Source: Candidatus Moanibacter sp. (GTDB taxonomy: Bacteria; Verrucomicrobiota; Verrucomicrobiia; Opitutales; UBA2987). Taken from it: a DNA stretch of 64,000 bases. Each line of letters opens with the position of its first letter. Position 1 is the stretch's first letter. Shown here in pieces: positions 15,001-18,000 of the stretch. The position numbers were made by a program. The stretch is from positions 1-64,000 of the forward strand of contig CBDCEW010000100.1 in assembly GCA_965215885.1 (NCBI GenBank), given 5' to 3'.

Positions 15001-18000
15001 GATTCGGTGCAGAGATCGAATGCAGCCAGACTGCTCCTCTGAAAAGTGTGAAAAGTGCCGGTTATGCAACCCGCTGAGAAGGGTGACCCTAACCCGGAAA
15101 TTCGTGAGAAAATCGGGCTAATCTCGTACAAAAAAGGCGGGCAGCTAATCCCAAAAAGCTACCCGCCAGAGATTTCTACCTAATATATCTCCTGAATATT
15201 ACCCCTAAATATTCGAAAGAATAGAAATCAATATATTAAACCCTAACTTTATAGATTGGATATTGATGAAAACGTTCAAGAAAAAATATTTAAAGTTCCT
15301 CAAGTGGAGGGATAAGAGCCTTTCGGATCGGTCAGGTGTTTAGTTTGAACCCTGTTCTACCGAGACTTCCTTCACTTCAAGAACGAATTCGAGTACTTTG
15401 TGGGAAAGGAATTGAACCTGTACAAAAAAAGGCGGGTAGCCTACCCCAAAACTACCCGCCATAGATATTTTTTGTCTGTTACCCCAAAATTTCCCATTTA
15501 AGGGACTAATTCATGATTGCGGTAGCATTGTTTCACAAATTGCGATGAAAGGCAAGAGTACTCTTCTTCACCCTCCAATTTTAACGGCCTTTTTACGAGA
15601 TAGGAATCTGTCTGTCTCAGGTTAGGACAGCTATCAGCCTGTCGGCAAAATCCGACAGGCTGATAGCGCGCTTATTCGTAACTGGGAAAGAAAAGAGGCG
15701 GGCAGCCTACCCCAAAGCTGCCCGCCACCACTCGTATTCTACTTCTGCAAACTTTGTTACCCCAAACTTGCCAAAAAATCAATTTGGTGCCCGTCTGTAG
15801 AATGCTTGCCTATTAGATACTAGTCGGACTATTACCTGATTCCTTTCGCCTTTTTTCTAAGATTTGGATAATTTCAGGGATGATTTTGGGTTTCGTGGGG
15901 GCAAAAGTCCGGAGGCGTCGGTAATTCAGAATGCCGCCTGGAATCGCAATCCGATCGCGACAGCATTGCTTTCGCCGTCAAGGGGATCGAAAATGACCTG
16001 CAGGTCCGGTTGAAGCGTAATCCAGGGCGAGACCGGAATCTGATAGGTGATTTCGAGTATTCGTTCCGTCTTTCCGGTGGGACCTCCGGCGCCTGAAATG
16101 GAGTCGAGGAATTCGTCGCCAAATCGAGTAATGGAAAAAGCGATGCCGAAAAGGTCGGAATTTCGGCCCGGCAAAAGGCCGCTATAGGTGAACCCAAAAT
16201 CGCTGTAAAACCTCACCGTATTGCGCTCTTCGCGCGGACTGAATCCAATTCGAATAAATGAACCCAGCCCCTGATTGGGATCCGATTCCGAGAATAGTGC
16301 CTGATCCCCGACGAAATATAGGGAGGAGTTACCCTCAACCATTAAACCGGAGCCGAGGATCTCGAAATCTCCCGTATGGTAAAACCCGCCAATCTTATAC
16401 ACCCCCGGCATACCGTTAATTTCGATCTCCGAACCGGCTTCTAGAAAAAGCACATATCCACGGGCACCGCCCAGTCCGAACTCGAGACCGTCGTCGTTGA
16501 CCTCCTCTTCACCTGCGTCTCCACTGTAGATTCCAAATTGAAAATTGGCGTTCTCAGCTATCCTGAAGGAGCCCCATAGGCCGGGAGCTCCTAATGGAAA
16601 GATGGGCGCACCAATATTGCCGGATTCCGTGGGTAGCGGACCAAAGGCGCTGTTGATAAAGAGGCCGGCATTTTCGGAAACCATAAAGTCGTCATCGGCT
16701 GCGATCTGCCCGATTCGCATAGCGATCGCCCCATCCCTCCACTCCTTCTGCAACCACGCTTGAAACAGTCTCACAGTGTTGAAGGCAGCAATGTTGCTCA
16801 AAGCATTGAAATCGCCCACGAGGTGTTCGGAGGGATCATCTCCGAAGATCGCGAAGGCTCCGAGGTGAAGGCTTGTGCCTCGCCAGTTCGTGGATTCATC
16901 GAATTCGATGTCGACTCCGAAATCGATGAGCCCTTGCCATACCGACCCGGTCCGATTTCCTCCTTCGATGTTTGCCACGAATTCTCCGATTGAGACGCTG
17001 TAGGGCCGAATCCCGATAGAGTGAAGCCCATCCAAGCCGTTCGGCTCCGCAAGCAGGGAATCATGAGTCCTCCCGAATTCCTCGGCGCCGGCGTCGGCCA
17101 GCCACTGAGTTGTCAGGAACAGGCTGCCCAGCAGGAGCCTTCCTGCCGAGACACGAGCTTTCGATGCAACTTTCACGGTACGAATTCTTTGGAGCATTAC
17201 CGCACCCAGCGACGCACCCAGAAAGTAAGCTGATCGAGCAAGGTTACGACGATGATGATAACAAGCAGCAGGACGGCGACTTTTCCGTATTGAAAGCCCC
17301 GCACGTAGAGCTGGATATAGTAGCCGATGCCACCGGCTCCTACGAGGCCGAGTACCGCCGCGTCGCGGAAGTTCATCTCAAATCGGTAGACAGTGAAGGT
17401 CAGCACTTGAGGGACGCACTGAGGGAAAAGGCCGAATCGCAAGGTTTGGAGCCAGCTCGCTCCCGTCCCACCTACCGCGTTAATAATGCCTTCGTCTGCT
17501 GTCTCAAACTCCTCCGCATAGAACTTTGCCAGCATTCCGATGGAATGGAAGGCAATGGCGAGAGCTCCCGGGAAGGGCCCGAGTCCGACGGCGGCGACAA
17601 AGATTAGAGCCACAACGATGAGCGGAATCGATCGAATGAAGCCGAGGAGCCAGCGTACGGGCTGTGAGATCCATGTGGGAGTGACGTTGGAGGCGGCCAG
17701 AAAACCGAGGGGAAGGGAGACGATCACGGCCAGGAAGGTGCCGGCCAGCGTAATCATCATCGTCTCAATCGTGGAATTGATCACAAGAACCGTTACACTC
17801 CAATCCGGCGGCACGAGACGAGAAAAGAATTCGGCGAATCGCGGCGCCGCGCCGAGCAGGACACCCGGATCAAATTCTGCTCTATGCATTGACCAGGCGA
17901 CGAGTCCCAAAACGAACGCGCAAAAAGCGACCCGGGCCGAGGCTCTCCGATACCAACGATTGCGCAGGTGTGTCATGCGACGAATTGATTCAATCAGGCA

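Follow-up and report, generated by a model that had tools for sequence, protein, structure and literature searches.

What is encoded by the DNA that follows an OprB-family porin gene, if its open reading frames are too short to be informative? In the window (the whole 64,000-nt stretch of DNA that was analysed), the porin gene lies at 15926..17197 on the minus strand (PF04966, E 2.5e-56) and is the final gene of a phnD/C/E-oprB row, in which PhnD-, ABC- and permease-type genes accompany it. The stretch at 15128-15790 holds ORFs of only 40-53 aa, none with a Pfam match at E ≤ 0.01. Read directly on the minus strand, it carries three units, A, B and C, of a putative ~100-nt non-coding RNA gene, with oprB as the upstream neighbor in the same direction.

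Three tandem units on the minus strand

The units share one layout. From 5' to 3', they comprise a hairpin (P1), the sequence (U/A)UGGGGUAA (site 1), a purine-rich spacer, and a 12-bp terminator that carries GGGGUA again in its loop (site 2). All of the following coordinates are on the minus strand, and the scores are those of a covariance model described below. Unit B is the best copy (15424..15509; 78.9 bits, E 3.7e-17): P1 at 15492-15505 is followed by site 1, UUUGGGGUAAC, at 15478-15488, then by the spacer and a terminator (15424-15460) whose hairpin at 15431-15460 has its loop word at 15440-15450 and whose U run extends to 15424. Unit A, likewise a full copy of the sRNA gene (15684..15787; 66.7 bits, E 8.7e-14), has a weak P1 (15771-15787, CCAAA/UUUGG), site 1, again UUUGGGGUAAC, at 15756-15766 and then the spacer; its terminator (15684-15726) is formed by a stem-loop at 15697-15726, with the loop word UUUGGGGUAGG at 15706-15716, and a U/C run to 15684. 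Unit C is a divergent copy (15128..15226; 44.6 bits, E 1.1e-7). Its site 1, UUAGGGGUAAU at 15198-15208, is enclosed by a hairpin at 15194-15214, and the terminator at 15130-15167 has lost GGGGUA from its loop, which reads UUUUUGGGAUUAG (15145-15157). A similar variant of unit C forms the third unit in a genome of the same family (L002:1364-1451). The first-pass annotation had described this arrangement of minus-strand units with P1, site 1, spacer and terminator correctly, but the motif that it placed twice in every unit occurs twice only in units A and B. The loop sequence it gave holds as the family consensus, CUUAGGGGUAGG, whereas the loops of units A and B read CUUUGGGGUAGG.

Repeat and RNA searches supported this reading of the locus. 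A repeat finder recovered a 37-nt terminator block in three copies of 68-100% identity in the window, where terminator-like sites number five versus 1.4 expected from shuffles. ARAGORN, run on the window, again found no tRNA, as had been claimed. Over 14600-16200, the top-scoring Rfam 15 family (E ≤ 10) was antisense_SR1, which at 24 bits (E 0.036) falls far below its gathering score of 45 and agrees with the reported absence of the units from Rfam. The repeat finder also returned, between units A and B (15630..15667), a perfect inverted repeat whose 16-bp arms enclose a 6-nt loop; no U run follows it, it lies outside the family model, and its arm is unique within the genome.

Two covarying helices and a duplicated invariant word

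The word GGGGTA is nearly constant across the family. Of 111 distinct units, 104 have it exactly at site 1, 106 at site 2 and 99 at the two sites together. Invariance at site 1 spans 8 nt (UGGGGUAA), and in nearly all of 106 units GGGG is preceded by UU or AU and UAA is retained. Site 2, which mostly reads UUAGGGGUAG, falls in the loop of the terminator hairpin, six bases long with the sequence (A/U)GGGGU.

The flanking helices are maintained by compensatory change. Each unit has its own intrinsic terminator, a G+C-rich 12-bp stem with a U run, and 99.7% of cells in this helix are paired, compared with 45-59% in slid controls. Changes on both sides are seen at 10 of the 12 pairs in 56 distinct units and at 11 of the 12 in 111 distinct units, and none of 500 shuffles reached the covariation score, in accord with the terminator covariation noted before. 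A hairpin of at least 6 bp that ends no more than 7 nt before site 1 was present in 92 of 110 units versus 85 of 651 control positions; these P1 hairpins amount to 66 distinct stems, with 3' arms that are mostly GGAG, GGGAG or GGAGG and 5' arms of CUCC or CCUCC. RNAalifold, unaided, predicted both P1 and the terminator while leaving site 1 and the spacer unpaired. We conclude that the units belong to one sequence family with two covarying helices.

A family confined to the Opitutales

We built our own covariance model, R1, from 28 units. It matched 106 of 151 Opitutales genomes and 71 of 90 genera, with 1-6 matches per genome; the three matches in the genome under study all lie within the window. 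These counts are identical to those first reported (106 of 151 genomes, 71 of 90 genera, three places here), from an independently built model. With unit B as query, blastn found the RNA in 29 of 161 Opitutales genomes. R1 matched none of the listed 0.8-1.1-Mb genomes, which bears out the earlier claim of absence from reduced genomes. Some lineages of normal genome size are also without the RNA: it occurs in 0 of 6 genomes of family f23, and two genomes of 2.6-2.7 Mb in genus g2 lack it.

In a sample of the whole phylum, R1 matched all 26 other Opitutales genomes at E ≤ 1e-10 and none of 124 genomes outside the order at E ≤ 1e-6. The family is thus restricted to the Opitutales, as proposed. 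Five of the 124 matched weakly (E 1.7e-4 to 8e-3), and we rejected them as family members, their sequences being plain terminators without GGGGUA. A pattern scan across all species, for which we estimate ~500 chance matches in the entire collection, returned at least 121 stretches. Among the 80 loci listed, 54 are matched by the model, two of them weakly (27-29 bits); 53 of the 54 come from records with Verrucomicrobiota or Opitutales-type names, and the remaining one from a MAG labelled Enterobacteriaceae. The 26 listed loci without a model match belong to unrelated taxa and are consistent with chance. A literature search at the level of titles and abstract openings gave no hit on this RNA.

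Free-standing genes or parts of their neighbors

Conserved units of this kind might be no more than the ends or beginnings of adjoining genes. They could be conserved, often bidirectional terminators together with the 3' end of a neighboring gene, or leaders of a downstream gene. At this locus the array does lie downstream of a co-directional oprB; the hairpin could serve a second gene as terminator in at least 11 loci, where a convergent gene ends at a distance of 3-40 nt; the reverse strand of one unit gives a weak model score; and one RNA contig runs across the terminator of unit C toward the downstream gene. Elsewhere, however, the orientation of the neighbors does not fit. At least 20 of 42 loci have an upstream gene that is backed by Pfam or homology and encoded on the opposite strand; a downstream gene that runs toward the unit is seen in at least 11 loci, and 6 loci combine the two. 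Neighbors also vary from clade to clade. The units therefore do not always follow a co-directional gene, and conservation is not confined to a stem and a U run: P1, site 1 and the loop word are all kept, although a terminator needs none of them, and the units are arranged in tandem.

A promoter-like element points in the same direction. Of 105 units, 65 have a -35-like box (TTGAC, CTTGC or CTTGA) at 50-85 nt upstream of GGGG, and such boxes number 78 in three 10-nt bins from -80 to -60 versus 1-7 per bin elsewhere. In the window, putative promoters are marked by CTTGCC at 15551..15556 (minus strand), 71 nt 5' of the GGGG of unit B and at the family's modal place, and by CTTGAA at 15275..15280 (minus strand), 75 nt 5' of that of unit C. 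The box pattern was not found upstream of unit A, and a simple sigma-70 consensus scan of 14600-16200 gave 0 promoter-like sites versus 1.6 expected. In a subgroup of units, another conserved box, (A)ACTTGGCAYG-N4-RTGGTRTAR, lies 46-56 nt upstream of GGGG; the first half is similar to an ECF -35 element (GGAACTT) and equally to a sigma-54 -24 element, and the -12 half is non-canonical.

Because the -35-like box stands at a fixed distance, while upstream genes are often divergent and downstream genes convergent, these comparisons support the view that the units are not merely terminators or leaders of adjoining genes; we regard the latter as improbable. The family is independent of its neighboring genes, and the units are very probably genes of a free-standing sRNA family of the Opitutales without an Rfam entry. 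This is a well-supported new RNA family. Its members would be transcribed from a predicted 5' end ~10 nt before P1. Metatranscriptome coverage of the region comes from four runs of one study, whose contigs (2-7 per run, depth 2-6) cover parts of oprB and a downstream ORF in 14600-17200; one contig lies at 14973-15180 and none over units A and B, in libraries that were size-fractionated and in which the organism is rare.

What the RNA might do

Our preferred reading, which we hold tentatively and at somewhat less than an even chance, is that the RNA acts as a protein decoy. The stretch would then contain three paralogous genes of a free-standing sRNA of ~95-105 nt, each with its own promoter and its own intrinsic terminator. 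The working part would be the invariant GGGGUA, offered twice per RNA, once unpaired after P1 and once in the terminator loop. Acting in trans, the RNA would serve as ligand or decoy to an RNA-binding factor, other than CsrA, Hfq or ProQ, that recognizes GGGGUA, and its capacity would be set by the two sites that each RNA offers and by the several copies of its gene in a genome. We infer both the action in trans and the existence of a protein partner. Favoring a decoy over base-pairing are the display of one word in two structural settings, the tandem and multiple gene copies, the depletion of UACCCC near starts, and the lack of over-representation of 9-10-nt complements. Against it, most known sRNAs act by base-pairing, and this prior counts.

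Candidate partners were sought in the genome and across the order. Searches of this genome (90.3% complete) found no gene for CsrA (PF02599), Hfq or ProQ; control genomes do match PF02599. Three RRM proteins are present, and RRM_1 occurs in 114 of 151 genomes. Yet at least 10 genomes have the RNA without RRM_1, one of them 100% complete, and at least 18 have RRM_1 without the RNA, so that RRM proteins were rejected as the partner: their distribution across the Opitutales does not follow that of the RNA. A McsA-like protein is the divergent neighbor in 20 of 149 loci. It too was rejected as a partner or marker, being encoded in 144 of 151 genomes, including RNA-less ones, and not adjoining the units here. 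The motif (T/A)GGGGTA(A/G) at -120 to +12 of 5817 ORF calls occurs 18 times against roughly 47 expected; GGGGUA is not enriched in 5' regions, and therefore an mRNA regulon of the protein is not visible. Of the free-standing trans-acting sRNA proposed in the first-pass annotation, the free-standing gene family is supported by its covarying terminator, 5' hairpin, promoter-like box and gene orientations. A role in trans that titrates or guides a protein like CsrB/RsmZ may exist but is not supported: CsrA, Hfq and ProQ were not found, RRM_1 has a separate distribution, GGGGUA is not enriched in 5' regions, and the metatranscriptome contigs showed no transcript.

The main competitor, doubtful but to be taken seriously, is that the RNA is a base-pairing sRNA whose two redundant G-rich seeds act on UACCCC sites, either of a small number of mRNAs or of some other RNA. 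Its anatomy is that of RsaE/RoxS and LhrC: a hairpin, a single-stranded seed, the seed again in the terminator loop, and tandem or multiple copies. The 8-nt invariance of UGGGGUAA is typical of seeds, no chaperone gene is required by that class, and a small regulon would be invisible to genome-wide counts. One 9-nt match, GUACCCCAAAGGAG, sits immediately upstream of an SD-like AAGGAG and 22 nt upstream of a xylose-isomerase-like gene (contig C83); by our estimate, about one seed site near a start is expected by chance. The counts nevertheless run the other way. Around predicted starts (-30 to +30), UACCCC is present at 0.66-0.87 per 10 kb versus 1.4-2.3 farther out, a depletion that reproduces the first-pass negative on this point. 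Longer complements are without genome excess (for example TTACCCCAAA, 13 vs 10.5 expected, and TACCCCTAA, 8 vs 44.7), and the 17 exact 9-nt seed matches at -200 to +60 of ORF calls fall at genes without a shared theme. Targets among tRNAs were rejected, since TACCCC occurs in none of the 46 tRNA/tmRNA genes and the tRNA-His 3' end gives 6 bp only. Genome-wide duplex energies were dropped as a means of target finding because long interior loops inflate all scores. A narrower version, in which an alternative sigma factor drives an envelope-stress sRNA that pairs with an outer-membrane porin mRNA leader in the manner of MicA/RybB, is unlikely in our judgment. The ECF -35-like or sigma-54 -24-like first half of the subgroup box, the sigma-54 encoded in this genome and the position of the array after a porin gene would suit it, but the subgroup box is absent before all three window units. 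The neighboring gene is, moreover, the sole OprB-family gene, and no ACCCC occurs in its start region; porin-leader pairing was rejected for want of complementarity there. The 9-nt seed matches include no porin gene and one TonB-dependent receptor gene, 176 nt before its start.

Two further readings involve translation, and we give each very little weight. Site 1 reads (A/U)UG GGG UAA, that is, start, glycine and stop codons, and directly follows the 3' arm of P1, which is GGAG-like, so that it could act as a very short reading frame or as a decoy for ribosome binding. The conservation of the flanking UU/AU and UAA and the sequences of the P1 arms are compatible with this. On the other side, GGAG, which is paired inside P1, leaves a gap of only 0-2 nt to the putative start, site 2 in its most common form lacks a start codon, and no feature demands translation. 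Alternatively, and about as improbably, the RNA could target the ribosome, with its two (A/U)GGGGUA elements pairing with the exposed 790 loop of 16S rRNA. This loop reads GAUACCCCUGUAG in the genome under study and is complementary to AGGGGUA over 7 nt; were the reading true, the sRNA could sequester free 30S subunits and dampen the initiation of translation during stress. All 44 RNA-bearing Opitutales genomes with a readable 790 loop have UACCCC there, and all 7 genomes with UACCCU lack the RNA. Yet UACCCC is also present in 16 of the 23 genomes that lack the RNA and whose loop is readable, and in further orders of the class. Although the complementarity is real, it is specific neither to RNA-bearing genomes nor to the Opitutales, and we rejected it as a specific signal. 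A match of 6-7 nt to 4.4 kb of rRNA is the chance expectation. The SD-like and anti-SD-like arms of P1 are compatible with a ribosome theme. Likenesses to what we take to be 16S helix 11 (GGGGUAAC) and a 23S stretch (UACCCCAAA) were discarded, both sequences being absent from the rRNA of this genome.

To our knowledge, hardly any regulatory RNA has been described in the Verrucomicrobiota, and the classical sRNA partners Hfq, ProQ and CsrA were not found in this genome. Kept in 71 of 90 sampled genera, in up to six copies per genome and with two invariant copies of its word, the RNA is a strong candidate for a central role in post-transcriptional regulation in these polysaccharide degraders. 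Identifying the GGGGUA reader would open the phylum's post-transcriptional control to experiment; a protein in this role could represent a new type of global regulator that binds RNA. The family is ready for an Rfam entry.

Relation to known sRNA systems

In its general design, the RNA resembles CsrB and RsmX, RsmY and RsmZ, in which a short G-rich word is repeated in loops and single-stranded stretches and several free-standing paralogous genes per genome each end in an intrinsic terminator. It differs in its word, GGGGUA rather than A(N)GGA, and in having two sites per RNA only; csrA is, as noted, among the genes not found here, and no Rfam model of the class matches 14600-16200 at E ≤ 10.

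The multi-seed base-pairing sRNAs LhrC1-5 of Listeria and RsaE/RoxS of Firmicutes are ~100 nt long, occur in tandem or multiple copies and do not need Hfq. They carry one short C-rich motif (UCCC) in a loop, a single-stranded stretch and the terminator loop, and pair through it with Shine-Dalgarno regions, the terminator-loop copy included. Our family shares the predicted size, the copy arrangement, and the presence of one motif both unpaired and in the loop of the terminator. Its motif is G-rich, however, with a complement that is depleted near starts and not in excess in the genome, and there is no sequence or Rfam relation.

The Qrr sRNAs of Vibrio are near-identical paralogues with an invariant core, alternative-sigma promoters, a dependence on Hfq and one seed. 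Multiple paralogues, an invariant core and, in a subgroup, a sigma-54-like -24 element recur in our family, in contrast to its non-canonical -12 half, its duplicated word and the failure to find Hfq in this genome. With MicA and RybB, the differences are that no complementarity to the sole OprB start region was found and that the window units are without an ECF-like box; the likenesses are a small, terminator-ended RNA, a possible ECF-like promoter in the subgroup, and an array that adjoins a porin gene.

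Anatomy of the three units

Direct reading of the window revealed a common design in three tandem minus-strand units (15128-15790). In unit B, the clearest copy (15424-15509, minus strand), a 5' hairpin, P1 (UCCC/GGGA), is followed by AAUUUUGGGGUAAC, an A-rich spacer and a G+C-rich terminator hairpin of 12 bp, GGCGGGUAGUUU-UGGGGU-AGGCUACCCGCC, which runs into seven U. Unit A (15684-15787, minus strand) follows the same design with a weak P1; its first GGGGUA (site 1) is partly paired in the minimum-energy fold and open in the centroid fold. Unit C (15128-15226, minus strand) retains UUAGGGGUAAU, enclosed by a hairpin of its own, and its terminator loop is UUUUUGGGAUUAG, so that GGGGUA is no longer shown twice; the first-pass annotation had assigned two copies to every unit, which holds for units A and B and not for unit C. 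In the full units, the final two bases of the loop region are paired (U-A, U.G), placing GGGG within a six-base loop, (A/U)GGGGU.

Three scans agree on the units: the repeat finder, a terminator scan with 5 terminator-like sites in the stretch vs 1.4 expected, and the folding of single sequences (z -2.8 to -4.9). Between units A and B, at 15630-15667, perfect inverted arms of 16 bp enclose a loop of 6 nt, with no U run after them; the arm is unique in the genome, and the element is thus no dispersed repeat.

The unit stretch contains no tRNA and only ORFs of 40-53 aa without Pfam matches. Its best match in Rfam 15 has an E of 0.036, far under the gathering score, in agreement with the earlier claim that the family is absent from that database. 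The array is preceded by a row of PhnD, ABC ATPase, permease and OprB genes and followed by a small ORF and by an aldose 1-epimerase gene. Within the same family, a genome of 8.3 Mb also has the three-unit array with the epimerase gene downstream.

The family is confined to the Opitutales

With unit B as query, blastn found homologues in 29/161 Opitutales genomes, and 28 distinct units from these loci were aligned, giving 15 invariant columns (UGGGGUAA and U..GGGGUA). A covariance model built from this alignment matched 106/151 genomes and 71/90 genera of the order, the same counts as had been claimed from a separately built model, and 91/129 of the high-quality genomes, with 1-6 matches per genome. 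In the Moanibacter genome it matched units A, B and C only, reproducing the three places reported before. Restriction to the order was also borne out: in a phylum-wide sample, 26/26 other genomes of the order matched at E<=1e-10, vs 0/124 genomes outside it at E<=1e-6. Five weak matches outside the order are ordinary terminators without GGGGUA and were rejected as members.

When one genome per prokaryote species was scanned for the pattern, the matches listed comprised 80 loci, and 54 of these fit the model. All but one of the 54 carry Verrucomicrobiota or Opitutales-type names; the exception, L215, is a full unit (67 bits) in a MAG whose label reads 'uncultured Enterobacteriaceae bacterium'; its contig is probably mis-binned or mislabelled. 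The other 26 listed loci belong to unrelated taxa, fail to fit the model and are chance matches expected for the pattern. Within the order, the model found no match in the 0.8-1.1-Mb genomes, in one family of normal genome size (0/6) or in two 2.6-2.7-Mb genomes of one genus; an 8.3-Mb member of that genus has three copies.

Conservation of structure and motif

Retrieval of 80 further matches yielded an alignment of 111 distinct units, in which 99.7% of terminator-helix cells are paired and 11/12 pairs have changed on both sides, although this alignment leans towards the modelled structure because it was fitted to the covariance model. The covariation score was reached by 0/500 shuffles, slid controls had 47-59% of cells paired, and a 56-unit alignment gave a similar picture. 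Unaided, RNAalifold predicted P1 and the terminator helix, with site 1 and the spacer open. P1 is 83% paired in the alignment, where it is poorly aligned because its stem and loop lengths vary. Alignment-free, a hairpin of at least 6 bp ending at most 7 nt before site 1 was present in 92/110 units vs 85/651 control positions within these loci. The P1 hairpins comprise 66 different stems, mostly with CUCC or CCUCC as the 5' arm and GGAG, GGGAG or GGAGG as the 3' arm.

Exact GGGGTA occurs at site 1 in 104/111 units, at the terminator loop (site 2) in 106/111 and at both in 99/111. This points to GGGGUA, predicted to be present both single-stranded and in a loop, as the working part of the RNA. 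In nearly all units (e.g. 15478-15488), UU or AU precedes the GGGG of site 1 and UAA follows it, so that the site reads (A/U)UG GGG UAA, a start codon, GGG and a stop codon, directly 3' of the GGAG-like arm of P1.

Independent genes or parts of a neighbour

In 65/105 units, GGGG is preceded at a distance of 50-85 nt by a -35-like box (TTGAC, CTTGC or CTTGA), usually with an A/T-rich tract ahead of the box. Such boxes number 78 in three 10-nt bins, vs 1-7 per bin elsewhere from 200 nt upstream to 150 nt downstream. Unit B has its box at -71 and unit C at -75; unit A has none. The box position predicts a start ~10 nt before P1 and an RNA of ~100 nt.

The neighbouring genes vary between clades (GCV_T-like with DAHP synthase; McsA-like; DciA with ribosomal protein S1; GNAT; DegT; FAD oxidase with TPR; pantoate transferase with TonB-dependent receptor). 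The upstream gene is on the opposite strand in at least 20/42 loci, which contradicts the idea, raised in the first-pass annotation, that each unit is merely that gene's conserved terminator. The downstream gene converges on the unit in at least 11/42 loci, and both arrangements coincide in 6; neither an upstream terminator nor a downstream leader can account for such loci. Against independent genes count a plain sigma-70 scan of 14600-16200, which gave no site, and a poorly conserved -10 region. The fixed-distance box, the changing neighbours and the divergent or convergent flanks argue that the units are genes of their own, as judged from sequence.

In the RNA runs that contain the organism, its contigs are of low depth only. 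One of them (run X3; 14973-15180), at depth 3.8 and differing in two letters, extends from inside unit C over its terminator towards the downstream ORF start, possibly as read-through or as DNA in the library. In two families, one copy is flanked by a divergent GCV_T-like gene and by a DAHP synthase gene with which it is co-directional (L007, L008, L019, L023, L030, L045, L054).

A subgroup of loci (L047, L096, L021, L101, L118, L121, L108) replaces the usual box with (A)ACTTGGCAYG-N4-RTGGTRTAR, 46-56 nt before GGGG. By its letters, this box is similar either to a sigma-54 -24 element whose -12 is poor or to an ECF -35 (GGAACTT); two further loci, L022 and L106, have TGGCAYG-N4-ATGCA, nearer the sigma-54 consensus. 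In 20/149 loci (L002:2027-2515, L031:721-1200, L052:728-1288 and 17 others), the upstream gene is divergent and McsA-like, with a zinc-ribbon and a UVR motif and a match to NCBIfam NF053706 at E 1e-22 to 1e-28, below the cut-off. Many genomes have two paralogues, of which one is RNA-linked. With one further genome (G012, family f13) found by coordinate matching, the linkage extends over seven families, which suggests that it is old; perhaps the gene and the RNA are under shared stress control. The only McsA-like copy of the Moanibacter genome is away from the units (C103:118480-118971).

Protein decoy or base-pairing RNA

We conclude that the units represent a real, order-wide and undescribed family of predicted small RNA genes; titles and abstract openings in the literature held no description of it. 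The model matches and the own-gene evidence uphold this part of the first-pass annotation, while its CsrB/RsmZ-type mechanism is not supported: CsrA, Hfq and ProQ were not found in the genome, so this is not a Csr system, and GGGGUA is not enriched in the genome's 5' regions. The multi-motif anatomy is like that of CsrB/Rsm among protein-binding sRNAs and of RsaE/RoxS and LhrC among those that pair with other RNAs, but the family belongs to none of these, as defining motif, partner and Rfam models all fail.

Tentatively, and at somewhat less than even likelihood, the RNA may act as a decoy, whereby a protein reader would be bound by GGGGUA displayed unpaired and in a loop. RRM proteins are sRNA partners in some other phyla, and the genome encodes three; RRM_1 was rejected as the partner since its distribution across the order does not follow that of the RNA. 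It is possible, if somewhat less likely, that GGGGUA instead serves as a seed for base pairing. Here the earlier observation that UACCCC is not enriched near starts was confirmed, the word being depleted around start codons of the genome; longer complements show no excess there, exact 9-nt matches near starts are few and without a common theme, and no tRNA of the genome carries the complement. A small regulon would escape all such counts, so base pairing is only weakened by them. Envelope-stress, cis-only and translation-linked readings share the remaining probability; for the first of these, a porin target was looked for in this genome and not borne out.

The same word occurs in other non-coding transcripts of the genome. 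The D-loop of tRNA-Gly(CCC) (107401-107474 of its contig) is AGGGGUA closed by GUAU/AUAC, identical in its word to the terminator loop of the RNA and similar in its closing stem. Another GGGGUAA word, UUUUGAGGGGUAAGUG, is found in the rRNA operon leader on contig C102, ~100 nt before the 16S gene.
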